Assembly (NCBI GenBank): GCA_918797485.1
Contig: CAKKNE010000002.1
Coordinates: forward strand, 3,038,001-3,102,000
DNA length: 64,000 nt
Source of the DNA: Pelagomonas calceolata
Taxonomy: Eukaryota
Direction of reading: 5' to 3'
Under the pieces are notes generated by a model. It worked only from the letters and a program-made list of their open reading frames with translations. It was not told where the DNA came from and searched no databases. The first letter of the stretch is position 1. Each line of letters begins with the position of its first letter. This document shows, in pieces, positions 7,395 through 37,356 of the stretch. The translations under genes were made by a program, and so were the position numbers.

Positions 7395-10300
7395 ATGGTC
7401 GCCGGCATCGTGGTCATGGTCGGCGGCGGCCAGCAGCCCGCGGCCCAGCAGAACATGATGTTCGGCGGCGCCCAGCTCAAGCCGTTGAAAGCGTCGTCGT
7501 CCGCGCCGCTCGGGAAGGTGGGCAACCTGCCCGGCGGCATGAGCGCTTCATTAAAGTCGTTGATGGATTCGACACAAGTGCCTCGGAAAAGAGTCCGGCC
7601 GAAGCGACGGCGGAAGATCTTGCCTTTGATCCAGTATAGAGCGCCGCCGCCCCAACCTCCCAGGCCGGCCGGCGGACCGCGACGAGGACCGCGACGGCAA
7701 CGACCAGTTCAGGAGAGCGACGACCAGTCGACGGCGGACCCGTTTGCGTTCAGACAGTCGGAACCGCTCTCGAAACCGAAGCACGCCACGCATTGGTCGG
7801 CCATGTTACGAGGAGAACAAAAGTCCATGGCCGAGCAGGTCACGCGCTTTCCTGAGCGAGACGAACCGGCCATGTGGGCCGCGAAGGACGAGCAGCACGC
7901 GATTGAGTGTCGGCAAAAAGCCTACGCCGAAGCGGCCGAAGCTAGAAGAGCTGATGACGCCGTCAACGCGTACAAGCGCGACTTGGAACTGAGGCGGAGG
8001 CAGCGCGAACAGCAGCAGAAGAAGGAGGCCGAGGAGGAGAAGGCGAAGAAAGAAGCTGACGCTCGCGCGGCGGCCGCAAGAAAACGGGCCCTGCCGAAGA
8101 AAAGGCGGTTAAGACCGGAACTATCACCGCTCAAGGCGGGCCAAGCAAAGACCGTGTCGATCCAGGAGCCTCCTAAACAAGAAAAGAAAGTCGTGGACGT
8201 GAACGCGGAAGACGAGGGGGACCTTTGGGACGCCATTCTTAATGATGACGCGCCGTCCGCACCACCAGTTGTCGTGGAGCAGAAGAAGGCCACGCACTAC
8301 GGCCACATCTCGCCCGAGAAGTCGCAGCAGATGCAGCGGCCGATGCGCGACGTGGTCGCGGAACAAAAAGCGCGCTGGAAGAAGAAGCGGGAGCAGGAGA
8401 AGCGCTTCCTGAAGCAGCAGGTCGCGAAGGCTCGTAGGGACCTCGATAAGCGGGCCCACGTGCGGGTCGACGCGCGGCCATTGCGCGGGAACAGCAATCT
8501 CGTGAAGGCTCATCAAGGTTCATTAATGCCCGGCTTCGACGCTTCGGGGAGTTTCATCGATAAGGAAGGCGCGTTGCCCCTTCGGGAAGATGGTGTCAGG
8601 CCGATGACGGGCAAGAAGATTAGTCGAAGATATGGGGAAGACTGGCTCGCGGAGCACTTCAAGTCCTTGGTGGGTGGTGGTGGGGTCGTCGCTTTCACGC
8701 CCGGCGAGGACCAGGCTGACGAAGAGATGGAGCCCCACGAATCGCCTTCTAGGCCGTTCACGGCCTCGTTGTTGGCTAATAGACCCTCAACGACGGCCTC
8801 ATCAAGACGCGGCGCGGCGAGCCCCGCCTCTGTCGAGGAGGAGGAGGCCTCGCCGCGCGCCCGGGCCCTCGAGGAGAGCGCGCGCAAGAACGCCGAGGCC
8901 GTCGCGGCGCTCCGCGAGGACACGGCGCGCCTCGCGAAGAAGAACGCCGAGGAGGATACGAGAAGAGCGCGCTTCGAGGAGTTCAAGGCGACGGGGAGTC
9001 GGGACGCGCTGCGCGTCGAGACGGCTCCGGAGCCCGACGCGCTGGTGGTATCCCAAGAGCCGGCCGAGGAGGCGGAGTCGAGCGCGAGCGGTGGCGCGCC
9101 GGTGGGCGACAAGACGCGAGCCGCGCTCGAAGCGCGCCTGCGAGAGATCTTCGACCGCGTCGACACGTCTGGCGACGGCGAGATCTCCGTCGTGGAAGCG
9201 GTAAAAGCGCTAAGAAAAGACGACGGCTTCGCCGAGGTGCTCGGATTTGATGAAGCTACAAGAGTGAGGCAGGAGGACGGCACCAAAGACCAACTAATCC
9301 TGGCGCTCGGCGCGCTGGATAGTGATGGAGACAAGAACATAAGCTGGGCGGAATTTAGGAGGGTGGCGCTCGACGATGAAACGCCGGCGACGCCCCAGAA
9401 GCAGATCACAAACTTCGCCGTCGGTACGAGGATCGAGGCGCGCTACGAGGCCGGCGACGAGTGGTACGCCGGTGTGATCGAAGTGGCGCACGAGGACGGG
9501 TCCTACGACGTGTTATACGACGACGGGGACCGCGAGGCGAATGTTTCTGCCGACTTGGTGAAGCGCGAGGGCCCGGACTCGAAGCGGAAGACGCCGCCCG
9601 TCGCGGCGACGCCCGTCGTCGCGGCGCAGACGCCCGCGACGGCGGCCTCGGACGACTACGGCGACTCCTTCGACGACTTCGAGGAGCCGCCTAGCACCGC
9701 GAAGAAGTCGCCGATGCCCGTCGTCGCCGAGGGTGGTGACGACGCGCGCCAGCTCGACTTCGAGCCCGAGTCCGCGCCGGAGCTCGCGCCGGAGCCCGAG
9801 GCCGACGAGCCGGCGCCGGTCGACCCGCTCTCGCCCGGCGCCGCGGCCTTCGAGAAGGAGAAGGAGAAGCTCGCCCAGCAAAAGGCCGAGAAGGCGGCCT
9901 TGTCGCCCTACAAGTCGCCGCCGCCCGAGAAGAAGGCGGAAATGTTAGCGAAGGCCAAGGCCGAACGAGCCGCGAAGCAAGAGGCCGCGCGGATCGAGTA
10001 CGAGGCTCAACAAGAACGGGACCGCATTGAGAGGGAACGGCGGGAAGAGGAGGAGCGCATCGAACGGGAACGGCTCGCCGCCATCAAGGCTGAGGAAGAT
10101 AGAATAGCCGCCGAGCGGGCCGAGGCCGAGCGTCTTGAACGGGAGCGGCTAGCAGCTATACGGGAGGAGGAGTTGCGGATCGAGAAGGAGCGACGGGAGG
10201 CGGAGCGGATAGCGCGGGAGAAGGCCGCCGCCGAGGAGGCCGAGCGGGAACGACGGAAGCGCGAGATGGAGGCGCAGCTGGCCCGGGAGCGCGCGGAGAT

Positions 10301-10688
10301 GGAGGAGCGCAATCGAATACAAGCGGAACAGATGGATAAAGCATTAGCGGCGCTCGCCGCGGCCGCGCCGGCGCCAGCATCGCCGCCTCCTTCTGCCAAA
10401 CTGGAGCCGCCGACGCCCGGCACCGACTACGGCGACGACGAATTCGAGAACAGCGCGGCGACGCCGAAGTACGAGGAGTCCTTCGAGGCCGACGCGCCGG
10501 CGACGCCCGCTGTTGATGCAATTCCGGAGGATAGTGTGGCGGCGCCGGCGCCTTTATTGGCGCCGACGCCCGAGCACAGGCCGCCGCCACCATCAAAGAT
10601 GGAGACGCCCTTCTCGCACGCTTCTACCGAAGGTTATGGGGAGGACGACGACTTTGAAGATGAGGACTTTGCGGACTTTGAGGACTAA
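7395..10688 (+). CDS. Coiled-coil/low-complexity protein with EF-hand pair and Tudor/Agenet-like domain
   Basis: EF loops DTSGDGEISVVE and DSDGDKNISWAE; Tudor-like FAVGTRIEARYEAGDEWYAGVIEVAHEDGSYDVLYDDGDRE; E/R/A-rich helical tail. Start uncertain (7395 or 7455). Confidence 0.75.
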   Translation: MVAGIVVMVGGGQQPAAQQNMMFGGAQLKPLKASSSAPLGKVGNLPGGMSASLKSLMDSTQVPRKRVRPKRRRKILPLIQYRAPPPQPPRPAGGPRRGPRRQRPVQESDDQSTADPFAFRQSEPLSKPKHATHWSAMLRGEQKSMAEQVTRFPERDEPAMWAAKDEQHAIECRQKAYAEAAEARRADDAVNAYKRDLELRRRQREQQQKKEAEEEKAKKEADARAAAARKRALPKKRRLRPELSPLKAGQAKTVSIQEPPKQEKKVVDVNAEDEGDLWDAILNDDAPSAPPVVVEQKKATHYGHISPEKSQQMQRPMRDVVAEQKARWKKKREQEKRFLKQQVAKARRDLDKRAHVRVDARPLRGNSNLVKAHQGSLMPGFDASGSFIDKEGALPLREDGVRPMTGKKISRRYGEDWLAEHFKSLVGGGGVVAFTPGEDQADEEMEPHESPSRPFTASLLANRPSTTASSRRGAASPASVEEEEASPRARALEESARKNAEAVAALREDTARLAKKNAEEDTRRARFEEFKATGSRDALRVETAPEPDALVVSQEPAEEAESSASGGAPVGDKTRAALEARLREIFDRVDTSGDGEISVVEAVKALRKDDGFAEVLGFDEATRVRQEDGTKDQLILALGALDSDGDKNISWAEFRRVALDDETPATPQKQITNFAVGTRIEARYEAGDEWYAGVIEVAHEDGSYDVLYDDGDREANVSADLVKREGPDSKRKTPPVAATPVVAAQTPATAASDDYGDSFDDFEEPPSTAKKSPMPVVAEGGDDARQLDFEPESAPELAPEPEADEPAPVDPLSPGAAAFEKEKEKLAQQKAEKAALSPYKSPPPEKKAEMLAKAKAERAAKQEAARIEYEAQQERDRIERERREEEERIERERLAAIKAEEDRIAAERAEAERLERERLAAIREEELRIEKERREAERIAREKAAAEEAERERRKREMEAQLARERAEMEERNRIQAEQMDKALAALAAAAPAPASPPPSAKLEPPTPGTDYGDDEFENSAATPKYEESFEADAPATPAVDAIPEDSVAAPAPLLAPTPEHRPPPPSKMETPFSHASTEGYGEDDDFEDEDFADFED

Positions 10689-10877
10689 TTTTTTGGGGGG
10701 CTTGTATTTTTCTAGGCTGTTCCGCGCGCTCGTTTTCGTCCGCAAACGAGCGCCGGGGGTCTCGCGTACCCACTGCAGCCTCGTCGGCTTCTCGACCCCG
10801 TGAGATTGATGATACGGGCACCGCGCGGCTCCGAGGTCGCATAGGGGGGTCTTTGGGGTAGTGTAGACTCAAGGGAC

Positions 10878-10884
10878 AAAAAAA
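10878..10884 (-). terminator. RNA polymerase III terminator (T7) of tRNA-Pro
   Basis: Run of 7 T on the minus strand beginning 8 nt after the tRNA 3' end. Confidence 0.75.
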
Positions 10885-10891
10885 TAAGCGT

Positions 10892-11016
10892 GGGCCGAAC
10901 CGGGGATCGAACCCGGGACCTCCTGTATGCTTGCGAGCGCGGCGCGCGGCGCGCGGACCCAAAACAGGAATCATACCTCTATGCTGGAACCCTTTGACGG
11001 GTCTGACCATTCGGCC
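10892..11016 (-). tRNA. trnP-UGG: tRNA-Pro(UGG) with two introns: 23 nt in the D-arm (11004-10982, after nt 12) and 30 nt at 37/38 (10957-10928)
   Basis: Removing both inserts gives GGCCGAATGGTCTAGAGGTATGATTCCTGTTTTGGGTACAGGAGGTCCCGGGTTCGATCCCCGGTTCGGCCC: perfect 7-bp acceptor stem, perfect anticodon stem CCTGT/ACAGG, T-arm GGTTCGATCC, C73, downstream poly-T. Confidence 0.93.
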
Positions 11017-11256
11017 GATGCATCCAACGCTAAAAAGTATCGGTGGCGGGCGCACAACTGCAGCCCAGCACACCTCTTTTTCTTTCTTCTGAGCCTTCAT
11101 GAAGCATACTACGAAACGGCCCGTTTTCGAAATAATAGTTAAAAACGCTGTGTGTTTTTGTCGCGCACGGCTGCCAAGGAGGGCTAACAACAGTGCAACG
11201 CCACGCAAGGGCCCAGCTTCGAGCGTGCCACCGCCAGCAAGCCAGCCTTTGGAGCC

Positions 11257-12145
11257 ATGCACCGCCTCACCGAGAGCATCATAGACAATGCCACCATCAT
11301 CCTGATCATAGCCCACCCCGACGACGAGGCCATGTTCTTCTACCCCACGATATCGCGCGCGAAACGACTGCACATCATCTGCCTTTCCAATGGCGGCTAC
11401 GACGGCCTCGGCGAACAGCGCGAAAAAGAGCTGCAGCGCGCGGCGCGTCGCTTGGGCGCCTCAGCGACGTGCGTCAACAACGCGGCGCTCCAAGACGGGC
11501 CGCACGCCTGGGATCCAAGCGTCGTGGCGGCGAACGTGGGGCCGTGGCTGCACGCCGGCGCGGTCGTCGTGACGTTCGATCGCTACGGCGCGTCCGGCCA
11601 CGCGAACCACGTGGCAGTCTACCACGGCGCGGCCCCGGCGTCCTTCGCGCGGCGCGGCGACGGCGTGACGCGCGACGCACGCAGGCGTCCGGCGGCTCGC
11701 CCAGACGAGACGAGACTGCCGGTTCTACGCGCTCGAGACGGCGCCTCATTATAGACGGTACATCGGCGCGTTTGATGTACTATGCGCCGCCGTGCGCGCG
11801 CGGTTTGATCCGCGCCCGTGCCTTGTTCAGTGTCCTTGAAGCTCCGCGTCGATGGCGTGCTCTGTGTGTGTTTTTCCGCCTCCGCCTCCACGCCATCGAC
11901 GCGGCCGCTCTGTGCGTTTGTCTCTCGACGCCATCGACGCGATGCGGGGTGCCGAGAGAGTACGTGATACCGTTGCGGCGGGAAAGACACGCTACGCATA
12001 TAGGTCCGTGCTCGTCGCGAGCCTCGACGTGCGCGGCTGCTACGCGGCGCTCGCGGCGCACGCGTCGCAGCTGGTCTGGTTCCGGCGGCTCTTCGTCGTC
12101 TTCTCCGCGTACACGTACGCGAACCGGCTCGTCGTGATCGATTAG
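11257..12145 (+). CDS. PIGL: N-acetylglucosaminyl-phosphatidylinositol de-N-acetylase; exons 11257-11626, 11685-11817, 12004-12145
   Basis: AHPDDE, CLSNG, TFDRYGASGHANH and HASQLVWFRRLF motifs. Splicing a GC-AG intron (11627-11684) and a GT-AG intron (11818-12003) restores the middle segment FYALETAPHYRRYIGAFD in one frame. Confidence 0.9.
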
Positions 12146-29779: not shown

Positions 29780-32071
29780 ATGGATGCATTCGCTACGCTG
29801 GGGCCCGCCGAGGACCGGCCGCTCCCGCCGCCGCCGGTTGCGGGCGGGATGACGATGCAGCCGGCGGTGCCCGACCCGATGTCCGGGGCGAGCTTGTTCC
29901 CGCCGGCGACGGCGATGCCGGCGCCGACCGCACCCGAGCCACCGATGCCGGCGATGCCGGCGATGCCGGCCGCACCACAGTCCGGCGCGAGCCTCTTCCC
30001 CGCGGCGCCGCCCATGCCGACGTCGGCGCCGGTGCCGCCCGTGCCGCCGATCCCCGCGGCGGCGGCGGCCGGCACCGGAGGGGCCGCGCCGGCGCTGCTC
30101 AGCCCCACGGGCACGGCCATTTTCGGCGCCGTCGCCGAGCCGACGGCGCCCCAGTCGAACACGCCCGAGTTCAACAACGTCCAGCTCTGGAAGGACGGCT
30201 TTCACCAGGGCATGGCTCCGGACACGGCGCTGCCGCCGGGCGCGCGCGCGATGCCGGGCATGGCCGCGATGCCGCCCGCGACGCCCGCGGCGAATCCGTC
30301 GCCGAAGCTCATGGTCACGCCGACGCCGCTCAAGGTGGCGAACATGCTCGCGGCGCCGCTGGACCTCGCGCAACCGCCGGCGCCCGCGCCCGCGCAGCCC
30401 CAGGCGCCGAACTCGTTCTCGGCCCCCTTGGTGCCCCAAGGGCCGCCGGCGCCGGGAATCGACTCGTTCGCGGCGCCGGCGGCCGCGTTCGCGGCGCCGC
30501 CGCCGCCGCCGCGCGCGCCCGAGGTCGCGCCGGACGCCTTCCCGCCGCGCGCGCCCGTGGCGGCGGTGACGGGCGGCGCGGCCCTCTTCGGCGCGCCGCC
30601 GCCGACGGGCGCGGCGCTCTTCGGCGCGGCGTCGCCGAGCGACGCCGACAGCGACGCGGCGAGCGCCTTCGGCACGCCGGCCAAGCCCGTCGTGCTCGGC
30701 GGCGGCGGGTCGCCGTCGCCGCCGCCGACGTCGCGCAGCGGCTCGTTCTCGCCGCGCGGCGCGGGCAAGCACTTCCGCGAGTTCACGCCGCCGCCGCCGG
30801 CCCCCGAGGAGGCCTTCGGCGCGCCGCCGCCCGTCTCCGTCGGGGGGTCCGCTGCCGCCGCTGCGGCTGCTGCGTTCTCCGCGCCCGCGGCGCCGGCAGA
30901 TCCATTTTCTGCGCCGCCACCTGTCAACCAGGTGCCGAGCGACCCGTTCGGCGCGCCCGCGGCGCCGAGCAATTCATTTTCCGCGCCCGCGGCGCCGGCC
31001 GATCCCTTTTCTGCGCCGCCGTCACCTGTCAACCAGGCGCCAAGCGACCCTTTCGGCGCCCCGGCGGCGCCGGCAGATCCCTTTTCTGCGCCGCCGCCAC
31101 CTGTCAACCAGGCGCCTGCCTGGGGCTTCGAGGCGCGCCTGCGAGAAATCTTTGATAGAGTAGATACGAGTGGCGACGGCGATATCTCCGTCGTGGAAGC
31201 AGTCAAAGCGCTGAGGAAGGACGATGACTTCGCCAAGGTGCTCGGCTTCGACAAAGCTACCAGAGTAAGACAGGAGGACGGTACCAGAGATCAGTTGATC
31301 CTCGCGCTCGGCGCGCTTGATGCCGACGGCGACAAGAAGGTGAGCTGGGCGGAATTTAGGAGGGTCGCCACTTGTTATATTCCGTTCGGCGCGCCGGCAG
31401 CGACCGATCCGTTTTCAGCGCCGTCGGCCCCTGTCGGCCAGCCGAGCGACCCCTTCGGCGCGCCGCAGCCGCCACCGCGCGCACCACAACCGCCACAGGA
31501 CGCCTTCGCGGCGCCAGCGCCGCCGAGCGCCGACCCGTTCCACGCGGCGCCGGCGGCGCCCGATGTGTATCATGGTGGCTGGGGCGGTCAGCAGCCGCCT
31601 CCGTCGAACGTTTTCGCGGCGACGGAGCCGGTTTTTGAGTCGCCCGCACCGAAGGCCGCCGCGCCGCGGAACACGGCGTCGCCCGACTTGTTCGGCGACT
31701 CCGTCGCGCCGTCGACCGTGTCGAGTGGCGAGAAGAAGAAGGCCGCGAAGAACTTTGATTTCGGCCTGCACTCGGAACTTGTGTCGTTAGATCTGAACGC
31801 GAACGGTGCCCCACCAAAAGCCAAGAGCGCCATCAAACAAAAACCTGCCGTCGCCATGAACAAGATGGCGACGACGGAACGGCGGTCGTCGATGCTGAGC
31901 ACGCAGCCCATGGGCGCGCCCCCGGCGATGGGCATGGGCGCGCCCCAGGCGATGGGCATGCCGCAGCCGATGGGCATCCAGGCCCACCCCGCGTTCGCGC
32001 GCTACACAGCCGAACAACAACAGTGGTTGCTGGCTCAAACCCCACAAGTCCAGGCACAGTACCTCCAGTAA
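29780..32071 (+). CDS. Pro/Ala-rich DPF-repeat protein (putative endocytic accessory factor) with inserted EF-hand pair
   Basis: Many DPF/DAF/DLF motifs (ADPFSAPP, SDPFGAP), clathrin-box-like LVSLD near the C-terminus, EF-hand module at 31130-31369. Confidence 0.7.
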   Translation: MDAFATLGPAEDRPLPPPPVAGGMTMQPAVPDPMSGASLFPPATAMPAPTAPEPPMPAMPAMPAAPQSGASLFPAAPPMPTSAPVPPVPPIPAAAAAGTGGAAPALLSPTGTAIFGAVAEPTAPQSNTPEFNNVQLWKDGFHQGMAPDTALPPGARAMPGMAAMPPATPAANPSPKLMVTPTPLKVANMLAAPLDLAQPPAPAPAQPQAPNSFSAPLVPQGPPAPGIDSFAAPAAAFAAPPPPPRAPEVAPDAFPPRAPVAAVTGGAALFGAPPPTGAALFGAASPSDADSDAASAFGTPAKPVVLGGGGSPSPPPTSRSGSFSPRGAGKHFREFTPPPPAPEEAFGAPPPVSVGGSAAAAAAAAFSAPAAPADPFSAPPPVNQVPSDPFGAPAAPSNSFSAPAAPADPFSAPPSPVNQAPSDPFGAPAAPADPFSAPPPPVNQAPAWGFEARLREIFDRVDTSGDGDISVVEAVKALRKDDDFAKVLGFDKATRVRQEDGTRDQLILALGALDADGDKKVSWAEFRRVATCYIPFGAPAATDPFSAPSAPVGQPSDPFGAPQPPPRAPQPPQDAFAAPAPPSADPFHAAPAAPDVYHGGWGGQQPPPSNVFAATEPVFESPAPKAAAPRNTASPDLFGDSVAPSTVSSGEKKKAAKNFDFGLHSELVSLDLNANGAPPKAKSAIKQKPAVAMNKMATTERRSSMLSTQPMGAPPAMGMGAPQAMGMPQPMGIQAHPAFARYTAEQQQWLLAQTPQVQAQYLQ

Positions 32072-37284: not shown

Positions 37285-37285
37285 G

Positions 37286-37356
37286 TACGCCATCCGGGAC
37301 TCGAATCCGGAGAATCTGCTTGGAAGGCAGAAGTGTTACCCTTACACCAATGGCGT
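37286..37356 (-). tRNA. trnG-UCC: tRNA-Gly(UCC), intronless, with atypical A1:U72 and A53-C61
   Basis: ACGCCAT/ATGGCGT acceptor stem, GTGT/ACAC D-stem, TCTGC/GCAGA anticodon stem with loop CT-TCC-AA, TTCGA T-loop, poly-T terminator. Confidence 0.88.

Follow-up and report, generated by a model that had tools for sequence, protein, structure and literature searches.

The window, by which we mean the whole 64-kb stretch of DNA that was analysed, carries on its minus strand a tRNA-Pro(UGG) gene of 125 nt in total (11016-10892), interrupted by one insert between nt 12 and 13 and a second at 37/38. Exon 1 (11016-11005, 12 nt) supplies nt 1-12, i.e., the 5' acceptor strand, U8, G9 and the start of the D-stem; exon 2 (10981-10958, 24 nt) covers nt 13-37, from the D-loop through the anticodon UGG to G37; and exon 3 (10927-10892, 36 nt) provides nt 38-73 with the B-box and T-arm, the 3' acceptor strand and C73. 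The exons are separated by an ectopic D-arm intron of 23 nt (11004-10982), which lies in the D-stem and has a relaxed bulge-helix-bulge (BHB) junction of the HBh' type, and by a canonical 37/38 intron of 30 nt (10957-10928). The gene is preceded by a conserved 5' leader (11033-11017) and followed by a 3' trailer (10891-10878), in which 10884-10878 form a run of seven Ts (T7); a helix is predicted between leader bases -15 to -11 (11031-11027) and the complementary trailer bases 10891-10887. T runs act as terminators of Pol III, and the T7 run is likely to have this role here. The initial annotation had put the gene and its two inserts at the same positions, and all of these elements are on the minus strand. 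It had also proposed that a complete tRNA-Pro with perfect acceptor and anticodon stems appears once the 30-nt insert at 37/38 and the 23-nt insert at 12/13 are taken out; joining of the exons in silico indeed produced a 72-nt cloverleaf, called as tRNA-Pro(tgg) by ARAGORN, with 7/7 acceptor, 5/5 anticodon-stem and 5/5 T-stem pairs. Its body is of the eukaryotic tRNA-Pro type when compared with intact genes, and CCA is not encoded. A permuted or split tRNA gene was rejected, the exons being collinear within 125 nt. The D-arm intron begins with AG and ends with CA, the 37/38 intron runs from TC to CA, and a spliceosomal or group I/II intron was likewise rejected given the lengths of 23 and 30 nt, the lack of GT-AG ends and the lack of an Rfam intron match.

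The genes around this locus are of eukaryotic nuclear character, with Prp3, JmjC and LRR/WW proteins among the 21 ORFs scanned. The Prp3 protein showed 63% identity to an Aureococcus anophagefferens cluster, 52% to Chrysophaeum and 47% to Aureoumbra, identities which point to a pelagophyte distinct from Aureococcus. The stramenopile origin suggested in the initial annotation was borne out by the pelagophyte homologues of the neighbouring proteins, which together with the neighbouring genes themselves and the T7 run indicate a eukaryotic nuclear location. The stretch is present in marine metagenomes of several studies. Two plus-strand ORFs, at 7395-10688 and 29780-32071, have near-identical EF-hand Pfam profiles and are possibly the result of a local duplication. 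The divergent plus-strand neighbour of the tRNA gene (11257-11754) is expressed from about 11160 and contains an AHPDDE motif, typical of PIG-L-type deacetylases.

When ARAGORN and Rfam were run on the window the sole tRNA reported was a tRNA-Gly at 37285-37356 and the tRNA-Pro gene was missed, so that the warning that standard scanners could overlook such a gene proved correct for these two programs. A relaxed ARAGORN run returned 14 weak calls, and Rfam at E values up to 10 over 10600-11300 gave one chance match and no match to an intron family. A blind excise-and-scan of the window, with 26,748 candidates, produced 15 tRNA matches and recovered the D-arm intron, while its shuffled-window control gave none in 23,192 candidates. 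Among the other 14 matches ten overlap the 3' end of the tRNA-Gly and two were poor on inspection; the scan also returned an alternative register of the D-arm insert and a 14-nt case at 10946 inside the tRNA-Pro gene. No further credible hidden tRNA was found in the window by this procedure and inspection. The tRNA-Gly(UCC) itself (37285-37356, minus strand) is intronless, starts with the pair A1-U72, is followed by long T runs and has an A53.C61 mismatch in place of the expected G53-C61; it is possibly an odd but functional gene, or a decaying one.

Intact tRNA-Pro genes of the eukaryote type were collected by scanning two collections, one viral and one of prokaryote genomes, for the exon-2 motif (119 of about 130 viral matches were listed). 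In 172 of the 196 listed matches the motif runs directly on from the four end bases of exon 1; of the rest, the five inspected were variants or chance matches and 19 were without a T-arm. No insert at 12/13 was found among the 172 listed matches of intact type, nor among the five others that were inspected. The joined D-arm is exactly present in 95 of the 98 distinct intact genes listed and C73 in 97 of them, and the spliced tRNA-Pro, in which there is no letter absent from the intact set, outscores 20 of these 98 genes. Among all two-cut models giving 72 nt the 12/13 cut with 23 nt was the best register by 8.6 bits, and the best one-insert model had a profile score of -49 versus +97 for the two-cut spliced form; an intron outside 37/38 is present, with 12/13 as its best register. 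For the second cut the profile by itself leaves a range of 7 nt, and it is the anticodon-stem pairing and the bulge which set it at 37/38.

It should be noted that two other registers can be written for this gene, either a 21-nt intron at 13/14, which gives a 74-nt product, or a cut in the anticodon loop which leaves UGC and so a tRNA-Ala. The first was among the matches of the blind scan and also has three of its four central pairs formed, and the second is what ARAGORN reports for the half-spliced gene, from which the D-arm intron has been removed, both in the window and in all three metagenome loci carrying the gene (Ala(tgc) in each case). However, with an HMM built from 40 genes and applied to 83 forms, the 13/14 form scored 53.6 and the alanine register 54.3 against 60.9 for the 12/13 form, the margin of the 12/13, 23-nt cut among the 83 forms being 3 bits. 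At position 15, which is G in 40 of 40 intact genes, the 13/14 product would moreover carry U, and the body has C3-G70 and not G3.U70, the alanine identity pair, in addition to the C73 shared with nearly all of the listed tRNA-Pro genes. Both registers were rejected on their lower HMM scores, U15 and C3-G70, and we regard them as very unlikely. As to the collections themselves, 116 of the 119 listed matches on the viral contigs (L124-L242) were intact eukaryote-type tRNA-Pro genes, many of them on giant-virus bins, and no 12/13 insert was seen among the listed tRNA-Pro matches of these contigs. In the prokaryote genome collection (L243-L310) 56 of 77 matches were eukaryote-type tRNA-Pro genes within bacterial or archaeal assemblies, which likely represent eukaryotic or giant-virus contamination; one locus of this collection (L287) has a 20-nt intron in the anticodon loop.

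For the D-arm insert the initial annotation had described an inner hairpin, a central helix with three of four pairs and 3-nt bulges, and all of these were found. In the predicted fold the intron's 3' end is paired to U8, G9 and G10 (probability 0.58-0.74), giving three of the four central pairs with A7 opposite a conserved G (an A.G mismatch); the 3-nt 5' bulge is made up of nt 11, nt 12 and the first intron base and is unpaired with a probability of 0.85-1.0; and the inner hairpin has 5 bp with pair probabilities of 0.91-0.98. Taken together, eight of nine helix pairs have probabilities of 0.58-0.98. The outer helix has 0 bp and, because it is absent, the motif is relaxed (HBh'-type) and not strict, falling outside the archaeal hBHBh' definition in its outer helix and in its 3/4 central helix; the relaxed form is predicted for the window and for two relatives, L001 and L003, with 3/4 central and 5-6 inner pairs. 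A small competing hairpin takes up the 3' bulge in the lowest-energy fold, the unpaired probability of this bulge being only 0.14-0.25, and opening both bulges costs about 1.5 kcal/mol in the window, L001 and L003. When the inserts were shuffled, with the observed values of each insert as thresholds, 45 of 200,000 shuffles reached this geometry for the window and 23 and 2 of 200,000 for the two relatives; the geometry of the D-arm junction is beyond chance. The second insert has the features of a canonical eukaryotic 37/38 intron, with a 4-bp central helix that includes the anticodon-intron pair U32.G(-3), a GC-rich inner hairpin, an outer helix of 7 bp and a 3-nt 3' bulge. The U32.G(-3) pair is found in the window, L001 and L003, the central helix in L003 having three of four pairs.

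A scan of metagenomes for tRNA-Pro genes with an insert of 11-41 nt at 12/13 identified three loci, all of which are syntenic orthologues of the gene in the window, with identities to the window of 97% (L002), 85-94% (L001) and 83-85% (L003); there were no distant relatives among the matches. A comparison of orthologous loci had been recommended in the initial annotation, and all three retain the 12/13 insert and all 72 exon bases (12/12, 24/24 and 36/36). Identity in the downstream non-coding sequence is 142/189 in L001 and 144/189 in L003 (75-76%) and in the upstream sequence 148/223 and 109/223 (49-66%), the latter with L003 poorly aligned. Across the three relatives the D-arm intron is 23, 23 and 26 nt long, its last 11 nt are invariant, and it is identical at 20 of 23 positions in L001 and in L003; the changes consist of one G.U to A-U replacement within a pair, the rest being loop substitutions or a gain of 3 nt in the loop. 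The anticodon intron is 30 nt long in the window, 34 nt in L001 and 31 nt in L003, with its hairpin kept. RNAalifold detected no compensatory double change, three sequences having little power in this respect. The T7 terminator, the BHB arms and the leader are likewise maintained. Such a pattern would be expected if the gene works and its inserts can be removed, and the alignments support purifying selection on the tRNA-Pro(UGG) gene, with the qualification that part of the conservation of the insert could be hitch-hiking since it adjoins highly conserved exons. A block of about 26 nt of non-coding sequence past the terminator (about 10820-10845) is nearly invariant in the three relatives and has no Rfam match; it is perhaps part of the 3' UTR of the plus-strand gene that ends at 10688. 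Outside of these orthologues, a loose 12/13 tRNA-Pro pattern matched at least 120 loci of the viral collection (around 200 in all), and none of the 120 listed gave a tRNA upon excision, against three of three metagenome loci treated in the same way; when the 12/13 BHB pattern was generalized to other tRNAs, three viral matches and no tRNA resulted.

Insertions in the D- or T-arm of eukaryotic tRNA genes are usually read as a sign of a pseudogene (PMC4090602), and the gene in the window could by the same logic have been inactivated by the insertion, with a working tRNA-Pro(UGG) encoded elsewhere. An intact copy may exist outside of the window, and the spliced product was not seen in the polyA reads. 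Against this, 72 of 72 exon bases are retained in two orthologues whose downstream flanks are 75-76% identical, an outcome with a probability of about 1e-9 if sites are simply taken as independent; leader, terminator and the arms of the BHB have likewise been preserved, and the spliced form has no letter which is absent from the intact set. We thus consider inactivation highly unlikely.

RNA evidence was drawn from four polyA runs of a single sample, 6-12% of each of which was read, a library type unsuited to mature tRNA. Two read pairs, from a single run and possibly from one molecule, lie over the tRNA-Pro gene, and both are unspliced; no spliced joints occurred in the reads covered, with only these two pairs over the gene. 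They are in the tRNA sense, judged by the opposite orientation of the reads on the plus-strand neighbour, and according to bin depths span about 10890-11085, i.e., about 67 nt upstream of the gene and beyond the inferred start of transcription. The neighbouring promoter could have given rise to such an unspliced polyA fragment by divergent transcription, and the polyA reads neither show nor exclude splicing. Word shares of 0.22-0.26 in RNA metagenome runs carry no evidential weight. That the locus is an assembly artefact or a chance match is effectively excluded because three independent contigs carry the gene with synteny on both sides, to which may be added the empty shuffled control (0/23,192) and the RNA reads, which cross both inserts at full depth.

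The same reads bear on the idea that the D-arm insert stays in the RNA and that only the 37/38 intron is spliced, leaving a molecule in which the 23-nt hairpin replaces the D-stem and which is functional or serves some purpose other than translation. All reads seen were unspliced, and for the unspliced RNA a stable fold is predicted in which the insert stacks on the acceptor stem and a small replacement hairpin forms. Retention does not account for the exon bases that form the mature D-stem and tertiary pairs, which are invariant and match intact tRNA-Pro genes, nor for the bulges, which coincide exactly with the cuts that restore the consensus; in addition the insert varies in length between 23 and 26 nt, and the 172 listed matches of intact type have nothing similar. 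It appears to us quite improbable.

The D-arm insert splits the mature A-box, from which the initial annotation had deduced the use of an upstream promoter. This deduction is not supported: A-box-like 11-mers with 7/8 positions of the consensus persist in the unspliced gene at the junction of the intron with exon 2 and at -1, and the T5 run found at -20 to -16, ahead of the leader in the window and in L001 (T3 in L003), speaks for transcription starting near the gene. By the same consensus the native A-box site in unspliced DNA has 5/8 matches in the window and 6/8 in L001 and L003. A requirement for an upstream promoter was rejected; upstream promoter use may occur, by analogy with what has been proposed for C. 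merolae, and does not follow from the sequence. The 17-nt leader is identical at 17/17, 16/17 and 15/17 positions in the three relatives, and we infer that transcription starts near -15. The leader-trailer helix is present in the single-sequence MFE folds of the window, L001 and L003 and absent from the alignment fold; in L001 the trailer is shifted, yet pairing of leader bases -15 to -11 is still predicted. A conserved TATTAT (11132-11137, minus strand) is located about 120 nt upstream of the tRNA, near the 5' end of the divergent gene and about 25 nt from the first reads of that plus-strand gene.

Taking these observations together, we estimate at roughly 85% the probability that this is a conserved functional nuclear tRNA-Pro(UGG) gene, both inserts of which are removed by a TSEN that reads local BHB shape. 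The description of the gene as a two-intron tRNA-Pro(UGG) with BHB-like junctions is supported. The broader assertion in the initial annotation of position-independent, structure-guided splicing is retained in its second half, in that splicing at the non-canonical 12/13 site is, judging from the predicted fold, likely to be guided by shape; the term position-independent is too broad for one gene. A Pol III precursor would extend from about -15 to the T7 run with its ends paired. The 3' end of the D-arm intron would form a helix with U8, G9 and G10 that stacks on the acceptor stem, so that the 3-nt bulge formed by nt 11, nt 12 and intron base 1 would sit above the 5-bp hairpin, the 3' bulge being opened at a predicted expense of about 1.5 kcal/mol. 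In each bulge TSEN would then cleave behind the second base, and nt 12 would be joined to nt 13 by a ligase. If the order described for tRNA-Phe and tRNA-Ile in C. merolae (PMC3728597) is carried over, the D-arm intron would leave first, restoring the D-stem and the L-shape, to be followed by the 37/38 intron, and finally the ends would be trimmed and CCA added. Among the 19 proteins returned by an archaeal EndA query no pelagophyte TSEN was identifiable, the sole named match being archaeal.

Some features of the inserts may relate to the origin of the D-arm intron. Both introns had been said to end in AGCA; this is true of the window, and since TGCA closes the anticodon intron of L003, only GCA is common to the intron ends. 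The exon starts which follow the two introns match at five of six bases, and of the 67 six-mers in the mature tRNA the one at nt 13 is the only non-canonical site that matches the canonical 3'-exon start at 5/6. The shared GCA ends and look-alike exon starts hint that the intron inserted into a target resembling the canonical one, or that the 3' active site prefers certain sequences, this being a post hoc observation made on a single gene. Insertion into look-alike targets has been proposed for the Thermoproteales (cited in PMC4090602). It is conceivable, and to our minds somewhat doubtful, that pelagophytes and perhaps other SAR lineages have an archaeal-style, structure-reading TSEN and have gained tRNA introns by movement of the canonical 3' end to look-alike sites. 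If this were true, hidden interrupted tRNA genes would be missing from the annotations of a major group of ocean phytoplankton outside the red-algal nuclear lineage.

The closest parallels are found in the red alga Cyanidioschyzon merolae. In this species nuclear tRNA-Ile(UAU) has introns at 12/13, 37/38 and 53/54 (PMC9602550) and tRNA-Phe(GAA) has introns in the D-stem and at 37/38, and RT-PCR has shown for both that the D-arm intron leaves before the 37/38 intron; an upstream TATA-like promoter and TFIIIC-independent transcription of tRNA genes have also been proposed for this alga (PMC3728597). The pelagophyte gene resembles these in being nuclear, in combining a D-stem intron with a canonical one, in its BHB-type junctions and in being missed by default scans, and it shares the 12/13 position with tRNA-Ile(UAU) (PMC9602550), so that neither this position nor the two-intron layout is new. 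It differs in being a tRNA-Pro gene of a stramenopile, as opposed to Ile and Phe genes of a red alga, and in its relaxed junction with one mismatch and no outer helix, whereas the D-stem introns of C. merolae are strict hBHBh'. Introns occur in 63% of the C. merolae genes, whereas the one other tRNA gene in the pelagophyte window is intronless, and splicing was demonstrated by RT-PCR in C. merolae while here it is predicted from sequence. Chondrus crispus, also a red alga, has RT-PCR-confirmed tRNA introns in the D-loop (20/21) and T-loop (58/59) (PlantRNA 2.0, bioRxiv 10.1101/2021.12.21.473619), in two-intron genes with a canonical and an ectopic intron as in our case, which tRNAscan-SE called pseudogenes; its ectopic introns are in loops and the pelagophyte one is in the D-stem. 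The main text of the same preprint reports no atypical introns for its two heterokonts. The nucleomorph of Guillardia theta likewise has multiple introns, including ectopic ones, in eukaryotic tRNA genes (Kawach 2005, cited in PMC4090602, PMC3728597 and PMC13578239), though it is a relic red-algal nucleus in which many introns are without BHB, and here the gene is in a host nucleus.

Among archaea, Pyrobaculum islandicum interrupts the same isoacceptor, tRNA-Pro(UGG), at 25/26, 37/38 and 56/57, and similar crenarchaeal introns at several positions have been ascribed to intron transposition (PMC4090602). Relaxed HBh' or hBH junctions cut by structure are a further likeness to these multi-intron tRNAs, which differ in having an archaeal body and enzyme and other intron positions, the pelagophyte body being of eukaryotic tRNA-Pro type. 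A 2026 review assigns non-canonical eukaryotic tRNA introns to red algae and the Guillardia nucleomorph and permuted tRNA genes to prasinophytes and the Bigelowiella nucleomorph (PMC13578239). In the literature searched, where subscription papers were incompletely covered, no non-canonical tRNA introns were reported for a stramenopile nucleus and no pelagophyte genome paper with a description of tRNA introns turned up; a ciliate preprint described ordinary tRNA-Tyr introns only. A 2023 review proposes that eukaryotes other than animals and fungi have a simpler (alpha-beta)2 TSEN which may splice non-canonical positions, calls this idea open and points out that eukaryotic tRNAscan settings are blind to genes with non-canonical introns (PMC10485636). 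What is new here is apparently the occurrence in a stramenopile nucleus, the mechanism itself not being new. The gene is a warning that the tRNA sets of ocean picoeukaryotes may be under-annotated and, as a conserved nuclear case from a stramenopile, it offers a natural substrate on which to test the (alpha-beta)2-TSEN idea in a separate supergroup.
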